Source: Bacillota bacterium | GTDB lineage: Bacteria > Bacillota > Clostridia > TANB77 > CAG-465 | Direction of reading: 5' to 3' | Assembly (NCBI GenBank): GCA_023460515.1 | Contig: JAEWPS010000038.1 | Span: 7,409 to 71,408, forward strand | DNA length: 64,000 nucleotides | The notes under the pieces: generated by a model | Database searches by the model: none | What the model was told of the DNA's origin: nothing | What the model saw: only the letters and a program-made list of their open reading frames with translations | Shown here: piece after piece, positions 27,286 through 62,532 of the stretch | Position numbering within the stretch: the first letter of the stretch is position 1 | Layout: every line of letters starts with the position of its first letter | Program-made: the position numbers and the translations under genes

Positions 27286-28470
27286 TTACATAGTATATGT
27301 TCCGTCTACGAAATCTTCGTAAAGCGGTGACATTTCTCTAAGTCTATTTACTATTTCTTCTAATTCACTAATTAATTCAATTACATCTTCTTTAGTATTT
27401 TCTATACCAAAAGTTACTCTAAGTGAACCATGTGCTACTTCATGTATTAAACCAATAGCAAGTAATACATGAGACGGATCTAAACTACCAGATGTACATG
27501 CACTACCACTAGATGCGCATATTCCTTTTATGTCTAAGTTAAGTAACAAAGATTCTCCTTCTATAAATTTAAATGATATGTTAGCGTTACCTGGAAGACG
27601 TTTTTCTCTATGACCATTTAATTTAACATATGGTATTTTTGCCTCTATTTCAGATATATATAAGTCTCTTAATTCTTTCAAGTGTCTATTGTTTTCTTCT
27701 AATTTTTCACAAGCCATTTCTATTGCTTTTGAAAGTCCTACAATACCTGCTACATTTTCAGTTCCAGCTCTTTTATTTCTTTCTTGATGTCCACCATCTA
27801 TGAATTTATTAAATCTTACTGTTTTTCTAACATATAAAGCTCCTACACCTTTTGGTCCATAGAATTTATGTGCAGATAAAGATAATAAATCTATATTTAA
27901 TTTGTTTACATCTATATCTATATTTCCAACTGCTTGTACTGCATCTGTATGAAAGTATATCTTATGTTGCTTTGCTATTTTACCTATTTCTTCAATAGGT
28001 TGAATAGTACCAATTTCATTATTTGCAAACATTATAGTTATTAATATAGTTTTATCTGTTATAGCATTTTTTAGTTCTTCTAAATCTACTAGTCCTTCAG
28101 AATCTACATTTAAATATGTTACTTCAAAACCATCTTTTTCTAATGATTTACAAGTATCTAAAACTGCCGGATGTTCTATTTTAGTTGTTATTATATGATT
28201 ACCTTTTTTTCTATTAGCATATGCTACACCTTTTATAGCTGTGTTGTCTGACTCACTACCACTTCCAGTAAAGTATATTTCTTTAGCATCTGCATTAAAT
28301 ACTTTTGCAACCTTTTCTCTTGCGTCTTCTATTGCTTTTTTATTACTTCTACCTAAGCTATATATTGATGATGGATTACCATATTCCTCAGTTAAATAAG
28401 GAAGCATTTCTTTTAATACATCTTCGTTTAATTTAGTTGTTGCTGCATGATCAAAATATTTTATTTTCAT
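27286..28470 (-). CDS. nifS: cysteine desulfurase NifS/IscS
   Basis: ORF extends to 28491. Start moved to ATG 28470 (MKIKYFDHAATT) after AAAGGAGGAA. PLP Lys context SAHKFYGPKG and active-site SSGSACTS. Confidence 0.9.
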   Translation of the reverse strand: MKIKYFDHAATTKLNEDVLKEMLPYLTEEYGNPSSIYSLGRSNKKAIEDAREKVAKVFNADAKEIYFTGSGSESDNTAIKGVAYANRKKGNHIITTKIEHPAVLDTCKSLEKDGFEVTYLNVDSEGLVDLEELKNAITDKTILITIMFANNEIGTIQPIEEIGKIAKQHKIYFHTDAVQAVGNIDIDVNKLNIDLLSLSAHKFYGPKGVGALYVRKTVRFNKFIDGGHQERNKRAGTENVAGIVGLSKAIEMACEKLEENNRHLKELRDLYISEIEAKIPYVKLNGHREKRLPGNANISFKFIEGESLLLNLDIKGICASSGSACTSGSLDPSHVLLAIGLIHEVAHGSLRVTFGIENTKEDVIELISELEEIVNRLREMSPLYEDFVDGTYTM

Positions 28471-28553
28471 TATTCCTCCTTTTGTTAGCATACGCTAACA
28501 TTGTTTCAAAAATATATGAGACAGAATACCCATCCCAATATTAATATGTATTT

Positions 28554-28582
28554 AGTATAACATATTATTTTTATATTGTCAA
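28554..28582 (-). promoter_or_regulatory. promoter of the nifS-nifU-mnmA operon (TTGACA-N17-TGtTATACT)
   Basis: On the minus strand: TTGACA at 28577..28582 and TATACT at 28554..28559. Confidence 0.55.
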
Positions 28583-28679
28583 TAATATTATTTAAATTTA
28601 ATTATAATATTCACTATTTAATAATCTATATTTTATATATACAATTAGTCTTTTCATTTTTATTAAAAACATTCTATAT

Positions 28680-28723
28680 AAACAAAAATATAGAATTATT
28701 TAATAAATTCTATATTTTTGTTT
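28680..28723 (-). terminator. hairpin terminator after the 103-aa gene
   Basis: Perfect 18-bp inverted repeat AAACAAAAATATAGAATT (28680..28697) / AATTCTATATTTTTGTTT (28706..28723). Confidence 0.6.
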
Positions 28724-28747
28724 ATATCACTTTCATTATAAATACCA

Positions 28748-29059
28748 TTACTTAGATATATTAGGCAAATACCATTGTTGTAAAGGTTTGTCAAGTACCC
28801 ACTCTTTTTCATTAGAATATCTTAAGTATATGACTTCTTTCCCAAGTGCTACTTTCATGTCTTCTTCAATTTTTTTCAAAAAAACTTTATCAAATTCTGT
28901 TACATGATGTAATTGTTTCAACTCTTCAGTAATATCAGCGGAAATATGTTGAGGCATTCCCATCATATCATCGTCATACTCAACAACTAAAAACACCCGC
29001 TTATCCTCTCTTCTTACAAATAAAGAATCAAGCCTTCCTGAGACAACAGTATTATTCAT
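28748..29059 (-). CDS. hypothetical small acidic protein
   Basis: ORF extends to 29089. Start moved to ATG 29059 (MNNTVVSGRLD) after AAAGGAGTG. No family recognised. Confidence 0.5.
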   Translation of the reverse strand: MNNTVVSGRLDSLFVRREDKRVFLVVEYDDDMMGMPQHISADITEELKQLHHVTEFDKVFLKKIEEDMKVALGKEVIYLRYSNEKEWVLDKPLQQWYLPNISK

Positions 29060-29260
29060 TGTATTCACTCCTTTAGTAGCATTAGCCACTTAAATTAAAT
29101 TTTAATACTCATATATTATATCATATTTTTTGTATAATTCAACCAGTAAATTGTCGAAAGTAAAAGCTAAAAATGTATAAATATAGTTTATACAGACATT
29201 TACATATTATTAAAATAAATATATGTTATCTTGTATTTTGTAAAATTTTGTTAAAAATTG

Positions 29261-29289
29261 TTGACAAAAATTTATATTTATTATAAAAT
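29261..29289 (+). promoter_or_regulatory. promoter of the 514-aa pilin-leader gene (TTGACA-N17-TAAAAT)
   Basis: TTGACA at 29261..29266 and TAAAAT at 29284..29289. TTTGTAA-like motifs recur at ~10-bp spacing at 29237..29263. Confidence 0.5.
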
Positions 29290-29349
29290 TAATTTAGTAT
29301 TTAGTATAGTTATAATGACTAATTATTAAATAAAAATAGGAGGATTTAT

Positions 29350-30894
29350 ATGAAAAGAAATGAAGGTGTTTCTTTAATTGTATTAGTAATAACTATAATA
29401 GTTATATTAATATTAGCAGGAACGGTAATATTAAATTTATCAAATAATAACCCAGTAAATGCAGCGAATGAAGCAAAATTCAAATCAAATGTAAAAACAT
29501 ATGATACGGAATTGTCTATAATTTTAACAGATAAATATTTAAAAAACAATTTATTTAATCCTAATAATTTTAATGCAGGTATATGGGATGGAACTGGTAA
29601 TGTACTCGGAACAATAAAAGAATATATAACTAGTATAACAAAAGATGATGCAAAAAAATTTGAAATACAGGCAAGTAAATTAGTATATACAGGAACAAAT
29701 GCTTTAGAGATGCAATGGGCGTCTGAAGCAGGACTATCGTCTGGTATAATTGTTTTTGATGGTTCTGTCTACAACGAAGAAGCTGAATTTTATCAATATT
29801 GCTTAAAAGCACTTGAATATAAAACAGATAGTGGAAACGATATAGATATTGATGGTTACTTTGGAAACCAATCAAAAAGTGTACTAAATAAATTTTTATT
29901 AGCAGAAGGATTTTCAAACTTTACATATGAAGCAAGAAACAAACTTGTAGAATTAGCAGAAAGCAAACCTTACCCTGCTTATAATACCGGATTTATCACT
30001 AGCCAAAATAACTTAAACCATCTATCTTTCGTATATTGTAAATTATCCAATATAGATAATAAAAGTGATCCTTTTTACTCTATTAATGTATTGAAAAATC
30101 TTCCATATATAGTTACTGCAGAACCATCTGAATTATCTTATTCATCAAAAATGGTTACAGAAGCTATAAAAAGCAACACAAAATTATTCGGATATGTAAA
30201 TTTAGGGCCAAATAATCCTACTGATGCTAAAGCATCCTGGATAATGTCAGATTTAAATGAAGTTAAATCTCAAATAGATAATATAGCAAACGCTAAATGG
30301 TATGGAGTATTTATAGATCAGTTTGGTTATGATTGGAATGAAACAAGAGCAAGACAAAATGAAATTGTAGATTATGCACATAGTAAAGGTTTATCAGTAA
30401 TGGCTAACGGTTGGTTTGTAGATGATATATTTGCTTCAATAGTAAATGATTCTAATCCTACTGGTACACCTACTCATTTAGGAGCAAATGACTGGTATTT
30501 AATTGAAAGTTTCTTTACAGATGGAACTTCTTATAGAGCAGATAGCTCATACATAGATAAATATATAAAGGCTATGCAATATCATCAAAGTACTGGAATC
30601 AAAATCACTACATTATCATATAAGGTAAGTGCAAAAAGTTGGTTAGAATCTTCTGAAGATATAAGAATATCATATATACTTGCGGAATGTTTAAATTATA
30701 ATGGATGGTGGTTTGGAAAGTCTGACACAAGTGATAATTTAACTTATGGGCACGATCCAAGTATAGATTTAGGTACTTTCACACAATATTTAACATATGT
30801 TAGTGGTACTAAATACATTGCAAAAACAACAAAATATACAATAGAATATTATGCTGATTCAACTCCTACTATAAATTTATTGCCAAATCCATAG
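29350..30894 (+). CDS. prepilin-like-leader protein with PG_binding_1-like domain and uncharacterised C-terminal domain
   Basis: 514 aa. N-terminus MKRNEG|VSLIVLVITIIVILILAGTVILNLSNN matches the leaders of the two giant proteins. Residues ~150-195 (YQYCLKALEY...IDGYFGNQSKSVLNKFLLAEGF) fit the peptidoglycan-binding PG_binding_1 pattern. The C-terminal ~280 aa (YVNLGP..., GVFIDQFGYDW, ANGWF) weakly resemble a glycosidase-like barrel. AGGAGGA SD. Confidence 0.7.
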   Translation: MKRNEGVSLIVLVITIIVILILAGTVILNLSNNNPVNAANEAKFKSNVKTYDTELSIILTDKYLKNNLFNPNNFNAGIWDGTGNVLGTIKEYITSITKDDAKKFEIQASKLVYTGTNALEMQWASEAGLSSGIIVFDGSVYNEEAEFYQYCLKALEYKTDSGNDIDIDGYFGNQSKSVLNKFLLAEGFSNFTYEARNKLVELAESKPYPAYNTGFITSQNNLNHLSFVYCKLSNIDNKSDPFYSINVLKNLPYIVTAEPSELSYSSKMVTEAIKSNTKLFGYVNLGPNNPTDAKASWIMSDLNEVKSQIDNIANAKWYGVFIDQFGYDWNETRARQNEIVDYAHSKGLSVMANGWFVDDIFASIVNDSNPTGTPTHLGANDWYLIESFFTDGTSYRADSSYIDKYIKAMQYHQSTGIKITTLSYKVSAKSWLESSEDIRISYILAECLNYNGWWFGKSDTSDNLTYGHDPSIDLGTFTQYLTYVSGTKYIAKTTKYTIEYYADSTPTINLLPNP

Positions 30895-33815: not shown

Positions 33816-34270
33816 TATTTATTACCCCATTTATCTATAAATTTTCTAAACTCATCTTCTGGTACATAACCTATTAGTTTATCTACTTTTGCACCTTTTT
33901 CATCTATCACAACAAATGTAGGAGTATATGCTATCCCATAAGTATAACACAATTTTGTGTTTTTTTCATCATCTACATCAATATATTCAAATTCAATCGA
34001 TGATTTATATTCTTCCTTTATTTTTTCATATATAGGATCCATTTGTCTACACGCCGAGCAAAACTCAGATCCAAAATTATATACTTTATATGTTTTTATA
34101 GTTACTTCTTCATTATGATCTAAACAATTTGGATCGCTACAATCACTTAAAGCATTTCCATTTAACTTTTTAGTAACAAATACTGCTAGAATAAGAAGTA
34201 CTATTACTCCAATTATTATATATGACCTATTGTTTTTTATTTTATCCAAAATACAAAACTCCTTTAACAT
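33815..34270 (-). CDS. membrane-anchored thioredoxin-fold thiol-disulfide oxidoreductase
   Basis: 151 aa with an N-terminal TM helix and a CSAC active site in a thioredoxin-like context (NFGSEFCSACRQMDP...TPTFVVID). Overlaps the addB stop by 7 nt. Confidence 0.8.
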   Translation of the reverse strand: MLKEFCILDKIKNNRSYIIIGVIVLLILAVFVTKKLNGNALSDCSDPNCLDHNEEVTIKTYKVYNFGSEFCSACRQMDPIYEKIKEEYKSSIEFEYIDVDDEKNTKLCYTYGIAYTPTFVVIDEKGAKVDKLIGYVPEDEFRKFIDKWGNK

Positions 34271-37200
34271 AAATTCTCTTTTCTACAAATACTACTAAAT
34301 TCACAATACTTGCAGTGATTTACTTTCTTATTTGGTTTTATACTAACATTACCAGAGAGTATATCATTACCTATATCTCTTAATATATCTGTAATATCTA
34401 AACATAATTTTTCAAATTCTTCTTTTGTCTGAAATTTACTACTTTTCTTATCGCTTGTAACTGAACCTGGAAATACATCTATTAACTTATCTGTTTCATC
34501 TATCTTATTATCCATTAGTTTTAATATTTCGATATCTTTTAAAAATATACCATCCATTCTTAAACTCTCAATAATCTTTTTAGATATTTTACTTTCATCT
34601 TTAGTATACTCTTTAATATTTATCAGTTTTTCAGATAACGTAAAATAAAGCATTCCTGCTGGAATAATTTTTTGACTATTATCTTTTTTCGAATTATTTA
34701 TAAATGAGGATAAATATGTTATTAATTGAAGAGAAATTCCTTCTTTAATATCTTCTAATTTTAATTTTTTAGTTGAAGATTTATAATCTACTATTCTAGC
34801 ATATATTGCATCACCTAATTTTAATGTGTCTATTCTATCTATTTTTCCAACTATATACATAGAACTATTACTAAGTTTTATTTCTATAGGTGCAAATAGT
34901 CCTCTATTTTTAAATTCTATTTCATAGCCAAACGGTAAAAACTTGCTTTGATTAAAACTCTGTGCTATAGTAATTATAACTTTATTCATAGTTGCTTTTA
35001 ACTTTTGTTTTAATATTAAATATTTGACATTTTCCTTATGTTTATAAAAAGTTTTATCTAGCTCATTGTTTATTTGTTCTTCTAATATTTTGTAATACTT
35101 TTCTGTATCTAATAAAATTTCATGCCAATTTATGTTATTTTCAAGTAAATATATAGAAAATTTTTCTAATACATTATGCATAAAGCTACCTGTATCCATG
35201 CTTGTTATCGAGAATATTTTTCTTTCATTTAACTTTAAACCATATTTCATAAAGTAAGAAAACGGACATTTTTTAAATAATTCTAATTTAGATACACTTG
35301 TCACAAAATCATTTTTATTTATGTCGTTCATAGTTTGTTTAGTTAAATTTTCGTTTTCTCTAATATATTTTAATATATCATCTAAATCTGAATATTGCGA
35401 TATATACTTGTACAGTAAAAGCATTTCATCAGTTATACCTTCATCTCTATTAAATAACCTAATCAATTTTTCAAATGCATTTTTTCTAGAATAAATATTT
35501 TCAATTTCACTTTCGGATATTACATTACCTGTAACCTCCACTTTTAGTAATTTTTTTAAAATTATTATTAAACTAGAAGGTCTTAAAGATTTTCCATCTA
35601 CACTAGATGAAACAAAAGAAAAATACAATTTATCTTCAACATTATTTATTAATTCATATATATTATATAATTGCATATTTAATTTAAATAAACTTGTTTC
35701 TTTAAATTTTATATTATAGCTTTCAAGATTTGTAAGTTCCATATCATTAAATAATAGATCATCATCAATCTTTTTAGGTAGTTTGTCTTCATTTACACCT
35801 ACAAAAAACATTATTTTTTTAACGCCAGATTTAGATATATTTACATCTAAAACTTGAACTTCATCTATAGTAGGTTCAATACCTTTTACTTTAATATCCT
35901 TAAGAGAATACTTTAAAAGTTTATCAAAATCTGAAATAGTTATCTTAGTATCTTCATATATTTTTGTTACTGATGAAAACACTTCACACAAATTATCCCA
36001 CATTTGATATCCAAGATTTCCGCTATATTTAATTGTAGGATCATTACTATTTTTCATCTTATCTATAACTATATTATAATTATCCAATATTTTATTTTCT
36101 AATAAATGATCATATATTTTTTCTATTATTTCTAAAGTTGTATGTTTAACAGATGTAAATTTAGATATATCTTGAAATATGTTTATTACTTGTTTTCTTA
36201 TTTCGTTTAATTTATCTAAATTGTATATAGTACCATTAGCTGAATTATTATATAAAAATTCTCTTTCAAACTTATATCTATCATTATTAAATTCTAAGAC
36301 ATAATTTTCTAAATATGATATATCTTCCATACTTATATCATTTAAACCAAATTTTAATATTTGAAAAATATTTTCTATCTTATATCCTGTTTTACATATT
36401 TCAATTAGCTTTTGTATGTATTTAATCAAAACATTGCTTTGTATATTAACTTTAGAGTCTATATATACAGGTATATTATATTCATAAAAAGTTTTACGCA
36501 CAACATATGAATATTCATCAACATTCGATGTATATATTACAAAATCCTTGTATCTATATCCTTGTCTTATTTTTTCAGATATTATATTTGCTATTTTATC
36601 TATCTCTGTATATACATTAGTAGTTAAACTTACTGATATATTATTTGCTTCTATTTTATTATTTGAAATATCCGACATAAAAATATTATTTGATAAATAT
36701 TTTATATCCTCTTTTGCATTAGAAAAATTTGAACGCATTATTTCTGTATCTATCTTCAAATTCAATTTTTTAGCGTATTTTAACAGAGTTAATAAAGTTA
36801 AATTTGCTTGTGTAAATATATTTGAAATGTCTTCCATAAGTAAATTTGAAAGTTCATTAGGACTATAGCATGTTATATCATTTTCTAATATATCTGCAAT
36901 GTTTGTGGTTATACTAAATGTAACATTAAAGTTAAGTTTTAAAAGTAATTTAATAAATTTAAATTCATGGTTTGTAAAATTATTATATGCATCAAAATAT
37001 ATACATGTATTACTAACATCTTTTCCTTCATATAGCCTTTCAAATAAATTTAAAAATATTTCTGTTTCATCTATTACATCTATAAATTTATTTTCAGTAT
37101 AATCAATATATTCTTTATATACATTTGTTATTTCTTTTAATTTATATTCTAATAACTTATCTGAAAGTTGTAAAGAATTTATTTCATCTATTTTAATATC

Positions 37201-37587
37201 TTCTTTTTTAAATATATCAATATATATATTTAAATTTTCTAAAAATCCTTCTTTGTTTTTAACTTTTTTAAACATATTAAATAAATCAGGGTTTTCAAGC
37301 ATTATTCTAGTCAAAATAAGTTTTCTATCTAGTTTAGATATAAATTTATCTTCATGATTTACATTATATTGGTTTAAGAAGTCTTTAATATATGAAGTTA
37401 TAGTGGTTACATTTAAATCTATAATACCAGGTTTATTTTGAAAGTTTATATAATTTTCCTCTCCCAAAACCCTTGTTTGAGAGGGAACAAAATATATAAC
37501 CTTTTTACCTAATAGTATATCATTATCTATCTGATCATATATATATTTTGACTTTCCTGTTTTACTCTTGCCTAGTACTAGATTCAT
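34264..37587 (-). CDS. addB: ATP-dependent helicase/deoxyribonuclease subunit B (AddB)
   Basis: 1107 aa. N-terminal Walker A GKSKTGKS, C-terminal nuclease motif (GKIDRID...IVDYKSS) and a four-Cys iron-staple (CPFSYF ... CKYCEFSSIC). Confidence 0.85.
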   Translation of the reverse strand: MNLVLGKSKTGKSKYIYDQIDNDILLGKKVIYFVPSQTRVLGEENYINFQNKPGIIDLNVTTITSYIKDFLNQYNVNHEDKFISKLDRKLILTRIMLENPDLFNMFKKVKNKEGFLENLNIYIDIFKKEDIKIDEINSLQLSDKLLEYKLKEITNVYKEYIDYTENKFIDVIDETEIFLNLFERLYEGKDVSNTCIYFDAYNNFTNHEFKFIKLLLKLNFNVTFSITTNIADILENDITCYSPNELSNLLMEDISNIFTQANLTLLTLLKYAKKLNLKIDTEIMRSNFSNAKEDIKYLSNNIFMSDISNNKIEANNISVSLTTNVYTEIDKIANIISEKIRQGYRYKDFVIYTSNVDEYSYVVRKTFYEYNIPVYIDSKVNIQSNVLIKYIQKLIEICKTGYKIENIFQILKFGLNDISMEDISYLENYVLEFNNDRYKFEREFLYNNSANGTIYNLDKLNEIRKQVINIFQDISKFTSVKHTTLEIIEKIYDHLLENKILDNYNIVIDKMKNSNDPTIKYSGNLGYQMWDNLCEVFSSVTKIYEDTKITISDFDKLLKYSLKDIKVKGIEPTIDEVQVLDVNISKSGVKKIMFFVGVNEDKLPKKIDDDLLFNDMELTNLESYNIKFKETSLFKLNMQLYNIYELINNVEDKLYFSFVSSSVDGKSLRPSSLIIILKKLLKVEVTGNVISESEIENIYSRKNAFEKLIRLFNRDEGITDEMLLLYKYISQYSDLDDILKYIRENENLTKQTMNDINKNDFVTSVSKLELFKKCPFSYFMKYGLKLNERKIFSITSMDTGSFMHNVLEKFSIYLLENNINWHEILLDTEKYYKILEEQINNELDKTFYKHKENVKYLILKQKLKATMNKVIITIAQSFNQSKFLPFGYEIEFKNRGLFAPIEIKLSNSSMYIVGKIDRIDTLKLGDAIYARIVDYKSSTKKLKLEDIKEGISLQLITYLSSFINNSKKDNSQKIIPAGMLYFTLSEKLINIKEYTKDESKISKKIIESLRMDGIFLKDIEILKLMDNKIDETDKLIDVFPGSVTSDKKSSKFQTKEEFEKLCLDITDILRDIGNDILSGNVSIKPNKKVNHCKYCEFSSICRKENLC

Positions 37588-37597
37588 TACTTCACCT

Positions 37598-38143
37598 TCA
37601 ATTCTCTATATCATTTATCATCATTTGTTCATCTTTAATTTTTATATCTTCATAATTTGGAAGTTCTGATATATTCTTTATATTACAGTTTTTCAAAAAC
37701 TCTTTTGTAACTGAATATATAGCTGGTCTACCAGGAGCATTAAGTCTTGCAACTTCTTCAATTAAACCGCATTCTAACAATCTACCTACTGCAAAGTCAC
37801 TACTTACTCCTCTTATTCTTTCTATTTCTGCCTTTGTTATTTTAGAGTTATATGCAATTATTGTTAGCGTTTCCATCGCAGATGAAGATAAATTTTGCCT
37901 TTTAGTATTTTCGATGAATAAATTAACATACTCATAATATTTTTTATTTGTTACAAGTTGCACACTATCTTCAATCACATATAAAACTATAGCATTTGAT
38001 TCGTTATACTTTTGCTTTAAATTTTCTACTCCACTATTTATTTCATTCAAATCTACTTTTAAAGTTTGAGATAATTCATCTAAAGTAATACTTCTTCCTA
38101 AAGCAAATAAAACTGCTTCTATAATATTTTCTATATTTTCCAT
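37598..38143 (-). CDS. scpB: segregation and condensation protein B
   Basis: 181 aa, ...IIEAVLFALGRSITLDELS... and ...EIERIRGVSSDFAVGRLLECGLIEEVARLNAPGRPAIYSVT. Confidence 0.9.
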   Translation of the reverse strand: MENIENIIEAVLFALGRSITLDELSQTLKVDLNEINSGVENLKQKYNESNAIVLYVIEDSVQLVTNKKYYEYVNLFIENTKRQNLSSSAMETLTIIAYNSKITKAEIERIRGVSSDFAVGRLLECGLIEEVARLNAPGRPAIYSVTKEFLKNCNIKNISELPNYEDIKIKDEQMMINDIEN

Positions 38144-38155
38144 TTAAATTTCCCC

Positions 38156-40900
38156 CTAATTATTACTTTCTAAAATGTTAGCACAATCATAACAAGCATA
38201 GCGGTACTTTATATGTCTACCAACATCATTTCTATAATTATGACACCTTTCACATTTCTGTGCTTCAGACTTTTGCACTAAAGCAACAAATTTATTAGAA
38301 ATTTCAACATCAATATTTGATATATTTAATGCTTTTAAGATATCATTATTATTTTGTTGTATAAACTCATACATTTCCTTTTTACATTTTACTAAAATAG
38401 ATGCTTGTAATGTGTCACCTATTATATTATCATTTTGAGCACTTGATATATATTTTCTTATTTTCTTTTTAAAATCAAATATTTTATTCCATTTTTCACA
38501 TTCTTTAGAATAATTATCTATATTATTTTCTTTGTTTTCTCTTTCATATAACAAATTATCAAAATCAGTCAAATATGAACAACTTTCAATAAATAAATAC
38601 GGTACAATTGGGCTAAGATAAATATTAAGCATATTAAATATATCATATAACATAGATTGAGTTGACCTTCTATTTTTACTATCTTGTTTCAAAATATACA
38701 AGTTATATTTTATAGAATTGAAATATTCTTCACATAAAGTTTCTAAACAGAAGTCTTTAATTAACATATATGCCTCATAAAAATCAAATTCATTATAGCA
38801 CCTTATAAGTTTCTTGCGTAAATCCTTTGTTTTAATATAAATATACTTGTCCAAATCTGTTCTGTTTTCAATATTTATATAATGTTTTTTAAAATCAAAA
38901 TCAGATATGTTAGATATTATAAAACCAAGTGTTTTTCTTATATTAGTATATATTCTTTCTTCATACCTTACATTATTTTCATCTATCAATATAGTTTTGT
39001 TTTTAGATTTATGTAATGCCCATAACCTTAATATATCAGGACCATATTTATTTATTATATCCTCGATATCTATATTTGTTATTATAAAATCTTGATCATC
39101 CCTAAGATTTTTTATATCTTCTTTCAAATAGAATTTTGGAACACCTAAAATCTTTTTATTTTTAATTATATTTCCATATATAAAAAATTTATCTATTTTT
39201 TTCATTTCTTCATTAAATCTGTCATTATATCTATTTATCTCTACACTTTTAATAAACTTATCAATGTTTGAAATAAATATATTATTTATTTTTTCATAAC
39301 TTGAATCTATGTTTGCTATATCTGATGATAATATTTCAAATGATTCATTAAATAAATTTTCATTCTTATAAAAAAATATACCACCACAATCACAGGCAAT
39401 AACACCGTCTAATAATTCTTCTGGTGTCATTTTATATACACTTTCACTGCCGTATTTTTCAATTTTATCTTTATATTGTTTAATAACTTTTTCGTTTATT
39501 ATTTTTTTATTACAAAGACCACAAGTAATAGATGGAATTATAACACCCTTATTTGTATTTTTAGATATTTTTAAATATTGGGATTTTTTATCCAAAAAAT
39601 TAATATGCATACTAGATTTTTTTAATATTTTATTTATATCATTTTCTATAGATTTATTACCACTTTCTTTAATATACCATTCAGAAAGATATCTATATAC
39701 AAGTTCACTATCACAATTTTCACATTTAGGAATATTAATTTTTTTTCTATCTATAAAAAGTAACATGTCGGACTTTCTAAGTTTATCGATTATATTTAAG
39801 TTAGCATCTTTGTAATACATAAATTTATATTCATCTATAACTGCACAAATTTTCCCATCCATATCTATATAATTTCTTATTTGATTTAAACCATTTTCTT
39901 TAAATATAGAATACTCAAGATAACTATGCGCAGGCGTTATAGTAATTGCTTTAGTATTTATTTTTGATAAGTCCATAGCTGTAGTCAAACATTTTATTTT
40001 CTTACTAGAATCTATGGAACTCAGGAATGTCATATTTTCTAACAATTTCCCAGACAAAGTTTTTTTGACTTTATATTTAAAAATAAGTGCATTTGCCATA
40101 TAATCTTCTACATATTTACTAGCAATTATATAGTGCAATTCCACTCCCTGCTGTGATATTACCTCTACTATACTATACTCTTCATCCTTTTGAACAGCAA
40201 CATTACTGATTCCAATTAAGGTCCAAGGTCTTATTGTAGAAGCAACAATAAAGGTATTTCTTAAATTATTATATTCAGCTAAAACATAATCTGGATCATC
40301 TTGAGCCCTAAATAATATATGAAATATTGAAACATTAATCTTATTATTTACCTCTATTACATTTTTACATTTTGTACAACATTTAGTAGGTGTATCTACG
40401 CTATATATTTTACCAGAATTATATAATTCAAAAAACAAATCAATCATCTTTTGTGAAAATATAAGACTAGTAGTAGTGTTATATGATTTTGTAAAATCAA
40501 TAATGCTACCAGATTTATTGATTGTGTTTATTTCTTTTTTTATAACATCATTCATGCTTTTGAATTTTTTGTTATTACTTTCTATACTATTTGTATATGA
40601 AAGTAATAACTTAGTTTCCGCTATTTGTCCACTCATTAGTGAATATCTTATAATAATATCTTTCAAAATATTACCTAGGAGATCATTGTTAGTAAGTTTA
40701 GTATCTAGTTCAATAGGTACCTCAGATATATACGTTTTTATTTTTGAGTTACGGTTTATTTCTAATGATTTTATATAGTTATTACTTGTTAGTAACTTAT
40801 CATTAAAATATCCTGTTCTTAATTCTAAACTTGCATACACACTCAAAGTTTTTTTAGGTAGATTTAAAGTTTTTTCAAAATTTTTATTATTTATATCCAT
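38156..40900 (-). CDS. isoleucyl-tRNA synthetase-like protein lacking HIGH and KMSKS signatures (probable pseudo-synthetase)
   Basis: 914 aa, collinear with Firmicute IleRS: N-terminal EKTLNLPKK, LGNILKDIIIRY, TIRPWTL, ITITPAHSYLEY, CENCDSELVYRYLSEWY, INKYGPDILRLW and a C-terminal CERCHNY...CYDC zinc knuckle. The HIGH position reads KLTNNDLLGN, and no KMSKS-like loop precedes YGPDILRLW. Confidence 0.7.
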   Translation of the reverse strand: MDINNKNFEKTLNLPKKTLSVYASLELRTGYFNDKLLTSNNYIKSLEINRNSKIKTYISEVPIELDTKLTNNDLLGNILKDIIIRYSLMSGQIAETKLLLSYTNSIESNNKKFKSMNDVIKKEINTINKSGSIIDFTKSYNTTTSLIFSQKMIDLFFELYNSGKIYSVDTPTKCCTKCKNVIEVNNKINVSIFHILFRAQDDPDYVLAEYNNLRNTFIVASTIRPWTLIGISNVAVQKDEEYSIVEVISQQGVELHYIIASKYVEDYMANALIFKYKVKKTLSGKLLENMTFLSSIDSSKKIKCLTTAMDLSKINTKAITITPAHSYLEYSIFKENGLNQIRNYIDMDGKICAVIDEYKFMYYKDANLNIIDKLRKSDMLLFIDRKKINIPKCENCDSELVYRYLSEWYIKESGNKSIENDINKILKKSSMHINFLDKKSQYLKISKNTNKGVIIPSITCGLCNKKIINEKVIKQYKDKIEKYGSESVYKMTPEELLDGVIACDCGGIFFYKNENLFNESFEILSSDIANIDSSYEKINNIFISNIDKFIKSVEINRYNDRFNEEMKKIDKFFIYGNIIKNKKILGVPKFYLKEDIKNLRDDQDFIITNIDIEDIINKYGPDILRLWALHKSKNKTILIDENNVRYEERIYTNIRKTLGFIISNISDFDFKKHYINIENRTDLDKYIYIKTKDLRKKLIRCYNEFDFYEAYMLIKDFCLETLCEEYFNSIKYNLYILKQDSKNRRSTQSMLYDIFNMLNIYLSPIVPYLFIESCSYLTDFDNLLYERENKENNIDNYSKECEKWNKIFDFKKKIRKYISSAQNDNIIGDTLQASILVKCKKEMYEFIQQNNNDILKALNISNIDVEISNKFVALVQKSEAQKCERCHNYRNDVGRHIKYRYACYDCANILESNN

Positions 40901-40935
40901 ATAATAACTCCTTCATTTGAAGATTTATGGCAATT

Positions 40936-42042
40936 TTATTTTCTTTTAAATTTTAAAATATGTTTAATTCCTACTGCATGAACTGGACAATGCTCTAAAC
41001 AACAAAAACATCTTATACATTTATTTTTGTCTTTTAAAACAACTTTGTTATTTATTAATTTAAGCGCATTAACCGGGCACCTATCTATACATAATTTGCA
41101 TCTTATACACTTCTTATCATTAAAGGTTGGATAAGGTTTAATAAATTTAGTTAATCTAAAAACACGGCCAAAACGTTTTTTAGATAAAGTATCTGGAAGT
41201 TTAAAATCTTTTATGTTTATGTCTTTTATTTTTTCTCCCACAACTTCAATTGATTTTGGATTAGTAAGTATGCCTCTTTCAATACTGTTTTTAACAATAT
41301 ATGAGTCTTCTAATTTTAAATTTATTAATTTAGAAGCTATATAATCTATTTCAAATTGATTACTCGAAGCTATTATTAGCCCAGTATTTCTTGGAGTACC
41401 AGAATTTGGTCCATTACCTTCCATCGAATATATTGCATCAACGATTGTTATTTGATTTTTAACATAACTAGATATATCTATTATTGCGTCTGCAAAGTCA
41501 CTATAGCTTGGATAAATAGAATGAATTTCAGCCTTTCTTTCACCTGGAACTATTCCAAATAAATTTTTAACTGCACATGTTAAATTCATCATAGCATGAG
41601 TTTTAAGTTTTGGAAGATTTATAACTAAATCTGCATTTAATATTGGATTTATAATTTCTATATTTTTTACAAGTTTTCCATTTATATTGACTAATTTAGA
41701 TGTAATATCTAAATTTAAAGTAGCCCCTATCTCTTCTGTTTCTAAATAACCTAATTTTTCATAAACTTTAGATAAACCTTTACTACTATATTTACCTGGT
41801 GGACTATCACAAATTACACATTTTGCTCCAAGAGATACTACTTTCTTTGCTACACACTTAGTAAACAAATGATGAGTAGTAGTTGCTGTATTTTCATCCC
41901 TTATAGCTAATAAATTTGGTTTTAACACAACGTTCATACCACTTGTTATTCTTTCATTAAATTTTAAATCAATAAATATCTTATTAATTGACTCATCAAT
42001 TAATTTTTCATCATAAGTTTCACATTTATATATACCAACCAT
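40936..42042 (-). CDS. DUF362 domain protein with C-terminal 2x[4Fe-4S] ferredoxin motifs
   Basis: 368 aa with CIRCKLCIDRCP and CIRCFCCLEHCP at the C-terminus, and a DUF362-like N-terminal body. Confidence 0.75.
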   Translation of the reverse strand: MVGIYKCETYDEKLIDESINKIFIDLKFNERITSGMNVVLKPNLLAIRDENTATTTHHLFTKCVAKKVVSLGAKCVICDSPPGKYSSKGLSKVYEKLGYLETEEIGATLNLDITSKLVNINGKLVKNIEIINPILNADLVINLPKLKTHAMMNLTCAVKNLFGIVPGERKAEIHSIYPSYSDFADAIIDISSYVKNQITIVDAIYSMEGNGPNSGTPRNTGLIIASSNQFEIDYIASKLINLKLEDSYIVKNSIERGILTNPKSIEVVGEKIKDINIKDFKLPDTLSKKRFGRVFRLTKFIKPYPTFNDKKCIRCKLCIDRCPVNALKLINNKVVLKDKNKCIRCFCCLEHCPVHAVGIKHILKFKRK

Positions 42043-42757: not shown

Positions 42758-43658
42758 TCACTTATATTTAACATCTTCTTTTTCTTTTAAAGATGTATAT
42801 ATATATTTATACCTTTCATATCTTAGCACATCTATTTCACTATTATCTACTGCCTGTTTAACCTTACATACTTTTATGCCTTCGTTTATATGATTACAAT
42901 CTAAATAATCACATGTATATTTAGAAAATTCATCATAGTATTTTTTTAAATCTTCAGATTCTATATCATATAAATCATAGCTTGAAAACCCAGGAGTATC
43001 TAAAATATATGAATTTTGGCATATACTATATAATTTTACATACTTTGTTGTATGTTTACCTTTGTTTATTTTAGAAGCTATCTCTCCAACTTCTATATTA
43101 AGTAAATTATTATTTAATAGTTTCATTATTACAGAAGATTTACCGTACGCCAGAATTACCTGAAAAAGCAGATGTTTTACCTAATAATTTTTCTTTCAAT
43201 TTTTCTAAGCCAATTTCATCTTTACTACTTATTTCTAGAATTTCAATATTAGAATAAGTTTTTTTAATATACTCTAAATCAATATTTAAATCATCATTAA
43301 GTAAATCAATTTTATTAATACATATTATTGGAGTAATATTTTTACTTCTACATAGAACTAATTGTTTATCTAATAAAATATAATCTGGTTTAGGATTATC
43401 TATAGATACTAATAGTATCATTTGATCGATATTGCTTACAGGTGGACGTATAACGAAATTTTTTCTTTGGTATATTTCTGTTATAACATAAATATCATAA
43501 CTTTTGTTTATATTAACAATATCTCCAACATATATTTTATTTTTTTTCATATTACCAGGTAAAATAGCAGTATGAAGAGAATTACTCTCTTCATCTACTG
43601 TTATATACTTATCTAGTAATATCTCTATTACTTTTGACTTAATAAAATCCTTATTCAA
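42758..43658 (-). pseudogene. rsgA: ribosome small-subunit GTPase RsgA (YloQ) split by a 1-nt insertion inside the P-loop codons
   Basis: The N-terminal ORF ends ...SAFSGNSGVR* (stop 43140..43142). Skipping one base at ~43145 gives GNSGV-GKSSVIMKLLNN..., restoring G1 (GxSGVGKSS) in frame with ORF 42758..43126, which carries DTPGF and the zinc-finger CDYLDCNH...C. G4 (CINKIDL) is in the N-terminal part. Confidence 0.75.
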
Positions 43659-48806: not shown

Positions 48807-51800
48807 TTATGGATAAATTTCATACAATCTGATACTAGCATATGCGACTTGTGTGAAATATTTTATATATTTTGTATTCGCAGGTACTGTATATGTATCT
48901 GTATATAATGTAACACCATTTATTTTGCTATTTCTAGTAAACGTACTTATAACTGTTTTTTGAGAATTTAAAAAGCTTATACCTGGTATTCCTTCACCCA
49001 TATCCCATTTACATTTTATTGTTTTTCCTATCATACTTGGATCTACTTCTATATATTGATCTGTCTTAGTATAAGTAGATGTATTCAAATTATTGTCAAA
49101 CGCTTCTACTTTTAATGCGTCAGCCACATTTGCCGTATAACTAGATATTATTCTTGTTTCACTTCCATATTGATCTATTCCTTTTGCATATATTGTCTGA
49201 CCTTGATCTACTTTGATAGGATTATTAATATAATTTAACCATTCTCCGGTTGTTCCTATTCTATATAATTTTTGTATACTACTTTGAAAATATGAAATTG
49301 ATACCATTTGATGTGGTAGTCTTACAGCATTTGCTGGATCTGCTGTTAATATCATATATCCATCTGTTGTAGTAAATGTTGGTTCATCGCTTAACCCAAT
49401 TTCATAAAAAGCATTATAATTACCAAGAACTCCATCATACGTATACATTATCCATTTTGCATTTACTGGGACAGTATATATATCATTGTATGTTCCAATA
49501 TTTGCTCTACTTAGTGTATCTATTACGTTTTTATTTTCATCTAAAAATTTCAAGTATATTGAACCAGAATTACCTATTGCTCCTCTATTCCATAAAATCC
49601 ATATTTTCTTTCCTTGTATACTACTATCGACCTTAATATATCTATTATTAGCAGATGTATATGTAGTATTATTTTTATCATAAGATTCTGCTCCTAAAGC
49701 ATCATTCATAGTAGCAGTATAACTTGATACAATTCTAGTTTCAATTCCACTTTGATCTATTCCTTTTGTATATATTGTCTGACCTTGTAATACCTTTATA
49801 GGTTGGTCGTTATAATTTAACCACTCTCCAGTTGTTCCTATTCTATATAATCTTTGAACACTCGTTGGAAAATAATTTACTGTTACCATTTGATATGGTT
49901 CTCTTACATCTCTTGTTGGATCGGCTGATAGTACCATATAAGAATTTGCTGCACTGAATGTTGGTTCATTACTTGTTTGTATCTCATATAATCCATAAAT
50001 ATTAACTACCTTTATCCACTTTGTATTTAGTGGAATAGTATATACTTCATCATACATAAGGTTTTGATTATACACAGTTTTATCAATTTGACTTATTATT
50101 TGTCTACTTTCATTTAAGAATACAATACTTTGAGTTGATGGACCATTTGCTGCAACATTCCACTTAACCCTCATATTTTTTCCTTGCATAGTACTATCTA
50201 CAGCCATATATTGATTTGTTGCATTAGAAATATATGTACTGTTATTACCATCATACGCTTGCGCTTTCAATGCATCGGCTGGCATAGTTACTGTCTGACT
50301 AACTGATACTTCTAATCCACTACCTTTTTTAACGCTTTTGGCTATTATTGTTCCACTTGAAACATGTATTGGGGCTGTATATAATGTCCATGTTGTTCCG
50401 TTATTCGTACTATAATAATTATCTATATCTGTTCTATTATCATATACTATAGTTGTTGTATCATCAAATATTACACCATATGAAGCTAATATTGGATAAC
50501 TAGCTGTTGAATTTATAACTGGCAACTTTGGTTTATCTAGATCTAGACTTACTACCTTCTTTTGAACAGTTATTTCATTTCCGGCTGTATCTTTACCTTT
50601 TGCATATATTGTTACTGTTCCGTCTGCATTTTGCCAATTGTTTGCTAATATTGTATTTGATGTTATTGCAAATGTAGCTGTATAATTAGTCCAAACCGCA
50701 TTACTTGTTCCAATCTTATACTGTTTTAAAGTAGCATCGCCATAGTTTATTGTTACATTTGCATTTAATCCTACTGTGGTTTCTGGACTAACTTGTATAT
50801 CTATTTTTGGAGCAGTTAAGTCTACATTTGTTACATTTAATGTATATACTTGTTTATTTCCTACTCTATCTTCCGCGTAGAATGTATAGTAACCATTACT
50901 TGTTATATTTACTATATTATTATTCGCTATACTAGTTCCACCACTTGAAAAGTAACTTTCCCCTAAAGTTCCTGGGGCCCACTTAACCATTCCAACTTCT
51001 ACATCATCTGTTACATTTACTTTTACTGCTACTTTTTGCATTGCAGTATTTAAATCTGCAGTTAAATTAATTATTGGAGGATTCTCATCAATATTTGTTA
51101 CTTTAAGCATTCCTTCCCTAGACCATACTTCACTTTCATCCATTCCTTTTGCATATATTACTGCGTTATTTCTATCTACAGTTATTGGACCAGTATAATC
51201 TTGCCAGTCTCCTAGTGTTTCATTTGGATTTAATATTCTATACTGTTTCGTTATAAGTGATTGATCATATATAATAGTTGCATTTACCTCTTTAGCTGGA
51301 TTAGTTGTATTTAATACAATTTGTGGAGCTCCAGCTGCAACTCTATCCCATCTCATAAATATATTTTCAAACATTTCGCTTATTGGTACATTAATTAAAT
51401 AATAATCCCCCATAAATGTTATCAAATTACCATTTTCATCTTCTATTTTTACTAGTGTTCCATTTTGTATGACAGTATCTTTAAATTCTGGTTTTATTAA
51501 TAATATTCCATCATTTTTATAACTTTTCCAATCACCAGTTGAAGTCCATTTGTACTCTCTACCATTTGAACCTTCTGGGTAATTTAATTTTAATATATAA
51601 TAACTTCCTTTATCCAGTACAAGTACCGGTGGTGGTGGAACTATATTACTTACAGTATATGTTGAATTAGAACTTTGTCCTTTAATATTTTCACTATATG
51701 CAAATATTTTAGTACCGTTTTTTGTTACTTCAATATCTCCTGTATAATCTCTCAAAGATCCACCATCTATACTATATCTTTTAATTGTTGCATATTTATC

Positions 51801-55774: not shown

Positions 55775-58700
55775 TTATAGTCCAGTGTTTACTACAATTA
55801 CTGGAATAAATCCACATCCAGTATTTCCACCATATGTATTATACATAGCAAATATCCCTGATGTTTTTGGTGTATTTTGATTCCAATATTCTCCACCACG
55901 TACACAAAAGCCATTACTATAATCTGGGGTTATTAGATAGTTATAAAACCATGCGTAAGCTCCTGAATATTCAGCTATCTCATACATTGCATGACCTTTT
56001 GGAGATGTAGTACTAAATAATGTTGTTGGTGTATATACATCTTTATATTGCGCTGGTGCATTAACTAAATTATTTCCCCAACCTAAAGATACATCACTTC
56101 TATATGCAGCTACAAAACTTCCTTTTACAGAAGACATATCATATATACCATATATATTTCCTGTTGTAGTTTGAGCAGCATTTGAAATATATCCTGTTCC
56201 TGTTGCACCACCTGTAGTAGTTGTAGAATTTCTAGTTATTTCAATTGCATCTTTTCCATAAGAAGATTTACTTAAATATGCTACTGCACCCCATTCAGAA
56301 TTCTTAATTAAATGTGTATCTAAACCTGATCCTGTAGTGCCCCATCCATACCTACTATTTGTTTCCATATTTCTACTTGCTGTGTATGCACCATTTATTC
56401 CACTACTATACATATCTAGCACTGTTATACCTGGTTTAAAATCTGGATTAGTAGTACTTCCGCTAGCCATGAATTTTGCTACCCATATACCCGTTAATTC
56501 TGTTGTTCCGAAGGTAAATGCTGGATGAGTAGTCCATGCGTTATTTGATGTAGTTACTGCACTTCCTGTATTTACTGTCCTATTAGAATTCCATAAATCA
56601 TTTATGCCTTGACTAAATTGTATATTTATTACTCCTGTAGTACTTGTTTGATGCCATCCTGAAGATATTTTATATACATATCTTGGTATCCACACCCACA
56701 TACTTCCATCTGCTGTTTGCGCATTTGCCCATTCTTTATTTTTATAGTTATACCAATTAGTATTATTATCTGGATCTGTAACTGTATCCCATGTGCTTGT
56801 TGAACTGTTCCAAATTTTTGCTGTCATTCCTGGTGCAAGCATTGGTTTATTTGCAACACCTTCCTCAATATTAGTTATAGTAATAGTACTTTGACCACTA
56901 TAATTTCCAGCTGCATTTCTTCCTCTAGCATAAATAGTAGTATTGTTTACTGTAACTACTATAGGCGATGTATATGTAAGCCACGTTGTTCCATTTAAAC
57001 TGTATTGCTTTGTTGTTACATCTGAAGAATATGTAATTGTAACTGTTACATTTCCACTTGTAAGTCCTGTAGGAGAAGCTGACATAATAGGATTTATTGG
57101 TGATATATTAGTTACTGTATATGTAGTTTCAGGAGACCAAAATCCATTTTGATCTAACGCTTTAGCATATATAATTGTAGTATTTTTATTTACTATAAAC
57201 GGACCTGTATAATCTAACCAATTACCTAATGTTCCACCTGGTTCTAGAATTCTGTATTTTCTTTCTACTGAACCTTGTTCATATGTAATTGTAGCTGTAA
57301 CTTCAGGTGCATTTGAAGTAGGATTTACTGTAACTTTAGGTTCTTCAGGCGCTACAACTATTATTGGTCTAATAATCCCATTTTCGTTACTGTATGTATT
57401 TTCTAAGCTAAATATACCAGCTTTATATGTACTATAATAATATCCTCCTCTCATGAAGAATGGTGAATATGAATACGGCTTATCTATAAAGTTACCAAAC
57501 CATTCTAGATTTCCACTATAATTACTTGAAGTTTCATAAAAAGCATCACCTTTTTTAGATGTTGCACTATATATATCTGTAATAGAATACATATCTCTAT
57601 ATTTAGCATTGGCATTTATCATAATCGGTGCATAAGCTAAATATCCGTTAGAATTATCATTTAAATATGCTGCAACAAAAGTGTATTTCATAGCTGACAT
57701 ATCGTATACACCATGTATATTTCCTGTAGTACTTTGCGCTCCATTAGATACATATGAGTTTGTAGTTCCACCACCTGCATAATATGAAGTACTAGGATTT
57801 ATAGATATTTCAACAGTATTTTTTCCATATGAAGATTTACTTAAATATGCAATTGCTCCCCATTCAGTATTTTTTATCATATGGGTATCTACCCTTTCAC
57901 CACTAGTTCCCCAACCATATCTGCTATTTGATTCCATATTTCTAACTGCTGTAAATGCTCCATCTAAACGTCCTATATTATATGCATCTAACATTGTACC
58001 ACCAGGCTTCGAATCAATTGCTGAACTAGTACCACTAGCTGCAAATTTTGCAACCCATATTCCAGTTAATTCCTGTGTTCCAAATGTAAATGCTGTATGA
58101 TTCGTCCAAGTATTATTTGATGCAGATGCTAAATTCGAGGTATTTATCAAACCTATTACTGCACTATTCCAATTATCATCTATACCTTTACTAAATTGTA
58201 TATTTATAACTCCTGTATTTGTTGTTTGATGCCATCCTGAAGATATTTTATATACATATCTAGGTATCCATACCCACATACTACCATCGGCTGTTTGTGC
58301 ATTTGCCCATTCTTTCCCAGCATAATTATACCATGTTGTATCAGTATCTGGATTAGTTACTGTATCCCACGTACTACTAGAACTATTCCATCTTTTTGCT
58401 GTCATACCTGGTGCAAGTAATGGTTTATTTACAACTACTTGAATTGCAAGTACAAAGGCGTTAGTTTTATTTACTACAGTATTTCCCGCATTATCCGTTC
58501 CCTTTACCCATAAATAATAAGTTCCTTCGACACCTGTTTTTGTTATTAATGAAGCATTCGTAAATGCTACCCAGCCTGAAGTTGGTGTAGTGATATTTTG
58601 TACATCCCAAACATATTGTAATGTTGATGCATCTACTCCACTACCATCAGTGTCTGTTACTGTAACTGTTGTACTAGCAGTTTCTACATTATTTGCTCCA

Positions 58701-62455: not shown

Positions 62456-62532
62456 AAGTAACCTCCATATAAACTTATTATACCCATTTATTTGTTTGCT
62501 AATAAACTTTATTAACAAATTTTTACATAAAT

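Follow-up and report, generated by a model that had tools for sequence, protein, structure and literature searches.

The 64,000-nucleotide (nt) stretch of DNA analyzed here, to which we refer as the window, comes from contig JAEWPS010000038.1 of a Bacillota bacterium (GTDB lineage Clostridia; TANB77; CAG-465). At positions 38156..40900 of its minus strand it carries a gene for a 914-aa protein that derives from type 1 isoleucyl-tRNA synthetase (IleRS) and is full length, with all of the synthetic-site motifs missing; we refer to this protein as pseudo-IleRS. Coordinates are those of the window, and all features of this gene lie, like the gene itself, on the minus strand. The gene is a single intact open reading frame (ORF) with an ATG start codon, and a Shine-Dalgarno sequence (AAGGAG, 40908..40913) is found 7 nt before the ATG, inside the 35-bp spacer 3' of the upstream neighbor, which encodes a DUF362 protein with two [4Fe-4S] clusters (40936..42042, minus strand). 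The downstream neighbor, separated by 12 bp, is scpB (37598..38143, minus strand), and addB comes next. The gene is part of a co-directional string that consists of def, two giant ORFs, fmt, rlmN, a PP2C gene, pknB, a split rsgA, rpe, the DUF362 gene, the pseudo-IleRS gene, scpB, and addB. An earlier reading of the same DNA made from the sequence alone, the original prediction, had placed the gene in a string running from fmt to addB and 35 bp from the DUF362 gene; the gene calls of the neighborhood and the measured spacer agree with it on both points. The genome is very low in GC (22-33%), and the context of the locus is one of housekeeping and sporulation genes. The host genome encodes SpoIIE, which identifies the host as a spore-forming member of the Clostridia.

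Loss of the catalytic motifs from a full-length IleRS homolog

The relationship of pseudo-IleRS to IleRS extends over its entire length. In phmmer comparisons, residues 7-912 align end to end with residues 2-915 of the S. aureus enzyme (1ffy), and the match to IleRS1 of P. megaterium (8c9e) has an E value of ~5e-42. The best Foldseek matches to the AlphaFold2 model of the protein (mean predicted local distance difference test [pLDDT] score 77.6, predicted template modeling score 0.65) are IleRS1 structures, namely 8c9f, 8c9e, and 1qu2, with E values from 1e-51 to 1e-47. The IleRS1 architecture and fold, with HUP, CP1, anticodon-binding, and Zn-binding domains, are thus predicted to be kept. 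In the alignment with bona fide IleRS sequences, the landmarks ILKD, RPWT, and YGPDILRLW and all of the Zn cysteine pairs are present. Both the end-to-end collinearity and the retained landmarks had been noted in the original prediction, and both stand.

The score of pseudo-IleRS against TIGR00392, the equivalog model for ileS, is 184.6 bits, which is 30% of the cutoff of 621.4 bits, and the Pfam tRNA-synt_1 model matches it as a fragment only (37 bits). Neighboring enzymes pass the cutoffs of their own equivalog models (score/cutoff of 854/308 for PyrG, 420/290 for RlmN, and 298/201 for the fmt product), as do MnmA, TsaD, YchF, MurC, PknB, and NifS; therefore, the divergence of pseudo-IleRS is specific to this gene rather than genome-wide.

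The alignment with bona fide IleRS sequences locates the losses. The segment PPYANGxxHxGH, which contains the HIGH motif, is replaced by PIELDTKLTNND; in the former HIGH region as a whole (residues 62-77, PIELDTKLTNNDLLGN; 40670..40717) P62 is the sole survivor, and no histidine is present in the first 190 residues of the protein. The RKMSKS motif is replaced by LRDDQDF with an insertion before it, and the former KMSKS loop (residues 581-609; 39074..39160) is now an acidic insertion containing NLRDDQDF, which is predicted to be disordered (pLDDT ~36); this segment is acidic and variable across the family of related proteins described below. The motifs that bind the amino acid have fared no better. 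The former GWDxHG(L/M)P motif reads LLLSYTNSI (residues 98-106; 40583..40609), where LLSYTN corresponds to GWDxHG, and the former DQxRGWF motif reads NIDKFIKSV (residues 545-553; 39242..39268), where IDKFIKS is the aligned part; both motifs are lost family-wide. Three further motifs are altered: WTTTPWT to ASTIRPWT, GTGxVHxAPGHG to NTKAITITPAHSY, and ISRQR to ISKNT.

The original prediction held that both class I signatures had been destroyed, and it allowed that a careful alignment might recover displaced but intact copies of HxGH and KMSKS. The alignment shows both replaced, and a regular-expression scan of the complete window protein for motifs resembling HxGH or KMSKS, for SKS, and for a P-loop returned nothing; the 17 other family members aligned with it likewise have no P-loop and no motif that resembles HxGH or KMSKS. 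The pattern HxG[HNTQ] was found neither in the window protein nor in 17 other aligned family members, and no family member has a KMSKS-like motif at the aligned position. A displaced motif or an alternative frame as the explanation for the motif loss is ruled out by the whole-protein scan. Because the motifs for binding of ATP (HIGH and KMSKS) and of isoleucine (GWDxHG and DQxRGWF) are erased, isoleucine activation and tRNA charging should no longer be possible. As judged from its sequence, pseudo-IleRS is confirmed to be a full-length IleRS homolog from which the catalytic chemistry has been removed.

Conservation of the zinc sites, the tRNA-binding half, and the CP1 domain

To describe what has been retained, we aligned 18 diverse members of the pseudo-IleRS family with 18 diverse canonical IleRS sequences. 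Of the 162 positions with an invariance of 85% or more in canonical IleRS proteins, the family has lost 120, including every residue of HIGH, GWDxHG, DQxRGWF, and KMSKS. The 42 invariants that are kept comprise five Zn cysteine pairs and motifs of the tRNA-binding half: G620, L624, R625, and L626 (LRLW); Y651, R655, and T657 (YRxIRNT); N664; D684; K731, L734, and Y735 (KDRLY); and R744 and Q748 (RRxxQ). Relative to canonical IleRS, conservation in the catalytic segments (residues 61-150, 421-450, and 511-600) is down by 1.2-2.7 BLOSUM units, and no other part of the family proteins is as poorly conserved as the catalytic core. Four other segments are up by 1.0-1.5 BLOSUM units: one in CP1 (residues 241-270), one in the second Zn insertion (481-510), one where the anticodon-binding domain begins (661-690), and one in the Zn-binding domain (841-914). 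Thus, conservation has moved from the catalytic core to the Zn knuckles, the anticodon-binding domain, and a remodeled C-terminal Zn domain.

The kept motif YGPDILRLW (residues 619-627; 39020..39046) marks the start of the region that makes the tRNA stem contacts and binds the anticodon. It is followed by the helical anticodon-binding domain (PF08264; residues 684-835; 38396..38851), in or near which the canonical invariants from Y651 to Q748 are located, and by the C-terminal treble-clef Zn-binding domain (residues 878-910; 38171..38269), where the CxRC...CxxC pattern is kept (C883, C886, C903, and C906). This last domain also contains a strongly conserved motif specific to the family, K-Y-R-Y-L-C-P-x-C-A, which occurs in the form KYRY(L/A)C. 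In the N-terminal half, the Zn knuckle C175-x-x-C178 (40367..40378) pairs with C393/C396 (39713-39724), and the second Zn site, C460/C463...C503/C505 (39386..39523), encloses the segment 481-510 (MTPEELL...) mentioned above.

The CP1 "editing" domain (approximately residues 185-395; 39716..40348) is the best-modeled domain of the protein (pLDDT ~90). In the remnant of its Thr-rich editing peptide (residues 220-227, ASTIRPWT; 40220..40243), T222, P225, and W226 do not vary among family members, and in the remnant of GTGxVHxAPGHGxxD (residues 314-330; 39911..39961) the VH histidine is lost and E329 occupies the position of the universal editing aspartate. This position is acidic in all 18 diverse members: Asp, or Glu in the subclade to which the window protein belongs. 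Most of the distant family members keep the "TG" of GTG; the second and third threonines, the VH histidine, and the LPAN asparagine are lost. In the window's subclade the pocket is degraded further, TG having become TK and Asp having become Glu. The original prediction described all of the editing motifs as degraded. On the one hand, this holds for the VH histidine and the LPAN asparagine; on the other hand, the acidic residue at the aspartate position, T222, P225, and W226 have been kept. STIRPW, with its gained arginine, does not hold as a motif of the whole family: only the Thr, Pro, and Trp are invariant, and the arginine is confined to some subclades.

Distribution, selection, and origin of the family

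A word-indexed protein search identified ten orthologs of pseudo-IleRS with 66-96% identity and two with 31% identity. An exhaustive HMMER search of 1.84 billion representative proteins with a profile of the family returned 14 representatives (clusters at 50% identity) scoring 563-1597 bits, the next matches scoring 442 bits or less; HIGH, KMSKS, TTTPWT, and DQxRGWF are missing in all 14, one of the clusters has 41 members, and the cluster of P0097 is the most prevalent. A scan in which each GTDB species was represented by a single genome found the family in 22 species-representative genomes with a GC content of 24-29%, its members having identities of 29-96% and the motifs missing in every one of them. 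The carriers include Clostridium sp. CAG:465 (scaffold FR891275), CAG:921 (HF991961), and CAG:1219 (HF996743) and the assemblies JAQUGQ01 (GCA_028704735.1) and JAQWEW01. The gut samples in which carriers occur are from humans (among them Hadza), rabbits, chickens, and further hosts, including ruminants. The family is also present in dozens of metagenome contigs from independent studies as intact ORFs of ~900-1000 aa. The ORFs in the species-representative genomes are intact or cut only by contig ends, with one exception (locus L021) that has two in-frame stops near the 5' end and a shortened ORF of 874 aa. The ortholog from contig L012 (JAQSXK01) is 96% identical, and this contig represents essentially the same species as the window.

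The Nei-Gojobori ratio of nonsynonymous to synonymous substitution rates (dN/dS) for the pseudo-IleRS gene is 0.094 against the 96% identical ortholog and 0.186 against an ortholog with 72% identity, which is inside the range of its housekeeping neighbors (0.01-0.21); in six other subclades of the family the ratio is 0.07-0.27. Family members are only ~30% identical to one another, yet they share 49 invariant columns. Pseudo-IleRS is therefore kept by purifying selection and is not decaying. The original prediction had taken an intact ORF of this length, in a genome that tolerates frameshifts elsewhere, to suggest a retained non-catalytic role; the dN/dS values and the intact ORFs in 22 genomes support retention by selection rather than by chance, and the neighboring rsgA, which is split into 172 and 122 aa, bears out the frameshift.

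With a broad hidden Markov model of the family (A3), the best canonical matches are Clostridia IleRS1 sequences (520-566 bits), which is consistent with duplication or capture of a Clostridia type 1 gene. A narrower profile (A2) had placed sequences from Atribacterota, Elusimicrobiota, and Endomicrobium at the top of the canonical matches; a sister group among these taxa was rejected, since the broader profile favors Clostridia IleRS1. Members of the window's subclade match the IleRS of a related Clostridia genome (L034, described below) with an E value of 1e-58 and distant members match it with ~1e-97, and on these values the window's subclade is the most derived of the family.

Several side observations concern variation in and around the family. 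Tails of 300-400 aa follow the Zn domain in L006/L023 (P0012, 1322 aa), L027 (1389 aa), P0096, and P0098; these tails of distant members are rich in Asn, Lys, and Thr and of low complexity. Two other IleRS-like proteins appear to be independent of the family: P0108 (ENA, 923 aa), which shows 40-45% identity to Clostridia IleRS and has retained DQYRGWF but contains "DITLGH" and lacks KMSKS, and P0120 (JGI, 934 aa), which is IleRS-like without any of the motifs. Loss of the motifs from IleRS copies may thus have happened more than once.

Regulation and gene context

The Rfam search of the window found no T-box or other Rfam element upstream of the pseudo-IleRS gene, even at E values up to 1, and the 35-bp spacer leaves no room for one, as the original prediction had proposed. 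Across the family, none of the 15 loci searched (the window and 14 others) has a T-box or another Rfam element before the gene, in contrast to the T-box of the canonical ileS genes of the relatives L034, L172, and L174, each of which has one above the gathering score. Regulation of the family genes is thus decoupled from the charging of tRNA-Ile.

The synteny of rpe, the DUF362 gene, the pseudo-IleRS gene, scpB, and addB is restricted to the window's subclade. Most of the distant members are located in the Firmicute cluster yqfC, yqfD, ybeY, dgkA, and cdd, followed by a DUF3298 gene, the pseudo-IleRS gene, and a gene for a D-Ala-D-Ala carboxypeptidase (dacB-like), and still other subclades have GerA or HD-domain genes as neighbors. 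No recurrent partner gene was found in the neighborhoods compared across subclades. An origin in a defense system or a phage was considered and rejected; PADLOC gave no match for the window protein, P0011, or P0097. In three of the loci (L017, L018, and L022), the carboxypeptidase gene downstream of the family gene is followed by recurrent genes, among them one for a protein with a SAF domain and one for a 237-aa protein that matches no Pfam model. A pilus-type operon may begin here; a paper on TANB77 (PMC11680825) reports a pilus gene complex that is conserved in uncultured low-GC gut Clostridia.

Other parts of the window show features of their own. The two halves of rsgA (42758-43126 and 43140-43658, minus strand) are separated by 13 nt and are in different frames. 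The gene is also split in the 96% identical contigs L001, L002, and L012, and it is intact (301 aa) in the 72% identical relative L004/L013; the split could be a fixed frameshift or a functional one. The giant ORFs between def and fmt (48807-54317, 1836 aa, and 55775-62518, 2247 aa; minus strand) have no Pfam matches at all, and the 72% identical relative has just a HepT-like gene between def and fmt. Short repeats at ~56.65-56.75 kb and ~58.22-58.32 kb match one another and also match giant ORFs of the gut Clostridia loci L141, L131, and L025 (2714-aa ORF). The addB product (34264-37587, minus strand) scores 555 bits, below its equivalog cutoff of 904 bits; the gene is followed not by addA but by genes for thioredoxin and DsbD, and the 64-kb window contains no helicase ORF of the size of AddA.

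A probable separate housekeeping ileS

IleRS activity is essential, and in this family conservation is lowest in the catalytic core. With the ileS of the relative L034 as the best indirect evidence, this makes it very likely that a separate housekeeping ileS exists in the same genome, a conclusion that follows from established knowledge. No second ileS is present in the 64-kb window, and tblastn searches with canonical IleRS against all family loci and their flanks of ±10 kb returned the pseudo genes only. The pattern used in the genome scan, YG[TPI]D[IV]LRLW, is blind to the usual YGAD form, so the lack of a canonical ileS hit in that scan carries no information. For the canonical group P0023/L034, followed through protein, metagenome, and contig searches, no whole-genome shotgun prefix or sample matched that of a genome bearing a pseudo gene.

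A blastn comparison of canonical and pseudo loci revealed no same-species overlap, and the relationship between L034 and the window emerged from it. L034 is a metagenome-assembled genome (MAG) of a rabbit-gut Clostridia member with 29% GC, and its nt identity to the window is 68-75% in nifS, rlmN, and pknB. It carries a canonical, T-box-led type 1 ileS directly upstream of nifS (region 481-4559 of L034), the product of which is 67% identical to an abundant group of gut Clostridia IleRS on contigs of 26-30% GC. At the syntenic position of the window, no remnant of ileS was detected with tblastn. What lies upstream of the window's nifS (27286-28491) is, at 28492-30894, a non-coding stretch of ~860 bp together with an ORF of 514 aa that runs on the opposite strand and matches no Pfam model.

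Three candidates for the canonical IleRS of this lineage were rejected. P0123 (L010; Logan SRR23215040) is a canonical IleRS with a FYMINK fraction of 0.47, the conserved enzymes of the window genome having 0.33-0.39, and with an I/(I+V) ratio of 0.84; its gene lies in a ylmE-sepF-ileS-rluD context behind a 321-nt leader that has no T-box match at the gathering score. It has no relative above 48% identity and is a singleton from unrelated samples. The other two, P0093 and P0061, come from an archaeal-type context and an unrelated bacterium.

Possible roles of pseudo-IleRS

We consider it somewhat better than an even chance that pseudo-IleRS is a non-catalytic, probably RNA- or tRNA-binding pseudo-synthetase. 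As a full-length descendant of a Clostridia type 1 IleRS, it would be unable to activate isoleucine or charge tRNA, and selection would maintain it as a folded, zinc-stabilized protein. The preserved periphery corresponds to the parts that hold tRNA in a real IleRS, that is, the LRLW/stem-contact segment, the helical anticodon-binding domain, and the C-terminal Zn domain, here remodeled; the CP1 pocket, where the aminoacylated 3' end is normally received, is also preserved in part. This combination makes non-catalytic binding of tRNA or a tRNA-like RNA the most likely action, and the protein might serve, for example, as a tRNA chaperone, a sequestering factor, or a sensor. Its reading of the wobble base would differ from that of IleRS, and the genome would have, at another locus, a T-box-regulated ileS whose product performs the real aminoacylation.

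Several points weigh against RNA binding by a dead synthetase. In the Zn domain of S. aureus IleRS, W890 stacks on G34 (PMC11685878). The corresponding tryptophan is lost in the family and the position is variable (H887 in the window protein), which makes specificity for tRNA-Ile doubtful; what seems to be preserved is a scaffold for holding tRNA with a changed reading of the wobble base, and we do not claim specificity for tRNA-Ile. The high Lys and Tyr content of the protein is due in part to AT bias, so arguments from basic and aromatic motifs are weak. The neighborhoods compared across subclades contain no tRNA-related partner gene, and neither the window nor any family locus with its ±10-kb flanks contains a canonical ileS. 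RNA binding is something that we infer from conservation alone; the identity of the bound RNA and the presence of a second ileS in the window genome are likewise inferred.

A more far-reaching version of this explanation, to which we give slightly less than even chances, is that the proteins constitute an undescribed, widespread family of dead full-length type 1 IleRS in at least 22 species of low-GC gut Clostridia that has been repurposed as a dedicated RNA-binding factor, with the Zn-domain tryptophan replaced by K-Y-R-Y and the aminoacyl-binding aspartate of CP1 kept. An entire class Ia scaffold would then serve as a new kind of sensor, chaperone of tRNA, or trans-acting factor for aminoacyl-tRNA. 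No description of a motif-less IleRS family was found in the literature searched, although this is no proof of newness.

Alternatively, the remodeled CP1 pocket could be a working site: tRNA would be docked by the anticodon-binding and Zn domains, and its aminoacylated 3' end would be acted on. The protein could be a trans-editing deacylase for mischarged tRNA, or else a transferase or sensor that depends on aminoacyl-tRNA. All of these activities proceed without ATP, and HIGH and KMSKS would be dispensable for them. The acidic residue at the universal editing position in 18 of 18 members, the retained first threonine and P-W, the "TG" of most of the distant members, the high pLDDT of CP1, and the elevated conservation of residues 241-270 all point in this direction, and there is a precedent in SbzA, an IleRS homolog for which Ile-tRNA-Ile serves as the donor. 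However, H333 and N250 of E. coli IleRS, which are the VH histidine and the LPAN asparagine, are needed for post-transfer editing, and both residues are lost family-wide; SbzA retains HYGH, AMSKA, and a biosynthetic cluster, neither motifs nor cluster being found in the family; and the pocket is more degraded in the window's own subclade. Taken together, the variants of this explanation are unlikely.

Still less probable is a protein-binding role without RNA, in which pseudo-IleRS would be a regulatory or scaffold subunit, like HisZ or the trypanosome prozymes, with the real IleRS or another enzyme as its partner. Dead paralogs often regulate their active counterparts, according to the general literature, and strong purifying selection on a large folded protein would fit such a role. 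The conserved surfaces, however, are those of the tRNA-binding domains rather than a new interface, the immediate neighbors vary by subclade, and the lack of a family-wide partner gene argues against a HisZ-like subunit. In addition, IleRS is a monomer.

It is very improbable that pseudo-IleRS is the sole IleRS of the organism and still charges tRNA-Ile through a radically non-canonical active site. The searches of the window and of the family loci with their ±10-kb flanks, neither of which produced a second ileS, would be in line with it. Yet the loss goes beyond the two signature motifs to every ATP- and isoleucine-binding residue, the replacement of KMSKS is variable and acidic, and the poor conservation of the catalytic core is the opposite of what would be expected of an essential enzyme; moreover, conservation of HIGH in type 1 IleRS is near-absolute according to a 2026 phylogeny, and the relative L034 has a normal T-box-controlled ileS. 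Finally, the ideas that the gene was inactivated recently and is turning into a pseudogene, or that it is an artifact of annotation or assembly, are effectively refuted: the genome does have at least one split gene (rsgA), and the composition of pseudo-IleRS is as AT-driven as that of the fast-evolving AddB, but the intact ORFs in 22 species and in dozens of independent contigs, the 49 invariant columns, the low dN/dS values throughout, and the strong ribosome-binding site all speak against it.

Significance

The pseudo-IleRS family is an instance of a known phenomenon, a pseudoenzyme derived from an aminoacyl-tRNA synthetase (aaRS), with an as yet undescribed and probably RNA-binding role. 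Dead aaRS paralogs such as HisZ are already known; a family that retains the whole 900-aa class Ia scaffold minus its chemistry would be a natural experiment for telling the parts of a synthetase that are important in the handling of tRNA from those that serve catalysis, and prevalent uncultured gut bacteria may turn out to have an additional layer of tRNA biology. The family has practical implications as well. Public names of family members differ, being either "isoleucyl-tRNA synthetase" or "class I tRNA ligase family protein" (P0001, P0004), and the former is a functional mis-annotation. When completeness is estimated from marker genes, or metabolism and pathways are reconstructed for these MAGs, family members could therefore be wrongly counted as ileS.

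Comparison with known systems

The closest known system is IleRS1 itself, as represented by the enzymes of S. aureus (1FFY/1QU2) and P. megaterium (8C9E). Pseudo-IleRS has in common with it the length, the Zn knuckles, the predicted fold, and the domain order (Rossmann/HUP, CP1, anticodon-binding domains, and treble-clef Zn domain); unlike IleRS1, it has no HIGH, GWDxHG, DQxRGWF, or KMSKS motif, no G34-stacking tryptophan, and no T-box. Second IleRS genes are known in Firmicutes genomes, as exemplified by IleRS2/MupM-type mupirocin resistance; these, however, are active, have a type 2 C terminus, and keep the motifs intact or carry variants of HIGH, whereas pseudo-IleRS is type 1-derived and motif-less. 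In a review that covers duplications of aaRS, those of IleRS are represented by active IleRS2 and SbzA only.

SbzA, from the biosynthesis of SB-203208, likewise has the full IleRS architecture, has been repurposed from housekeeping charging, and has tRNA-Ile as its ligand. It keeps 61-HYGH-64 and 605-AMSKA-609 and weak charging activity, and it is a self-resistance gene in a biosynthetic cluster; the pseudo-IleRS family, in contrast, has neither HYGH/AMSKA nor a biosynthetic gene cluster. Another parallel is LeuRS-I of Sulfolobaceae, a full-length class Ia duplicate kept by selection, for which a tRNA-dependent non-charging role is suspected. According to the account of Weitzel et al. (2020) given in PMC9437257, LeuRS-I does not support normal aminoacylation, yet it forms leucyl-adenylate. 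As far as that account goes, its synthetic site is intact, whereas that of pseudo-IleRS is erased, and the two belong to different domains of life and different amino acid families.

The analogy with HisZ drawn in the original prediction holds in one respect and is loose in another. Both proteins are dead aaRS paralogs under selection for a role other than aminoacylation; however, HisZ is a class II protein and a subunit of the ATP phosphoribosyltransferase HisG in the histidine pathway, whereas no partner or pathway is conserved across the pseudo-IleRS family. Another difference from HisZ is that in the pseudo-IleRS family it is the tRNA-binding domains, and not the catalytic core, that have been conserved.

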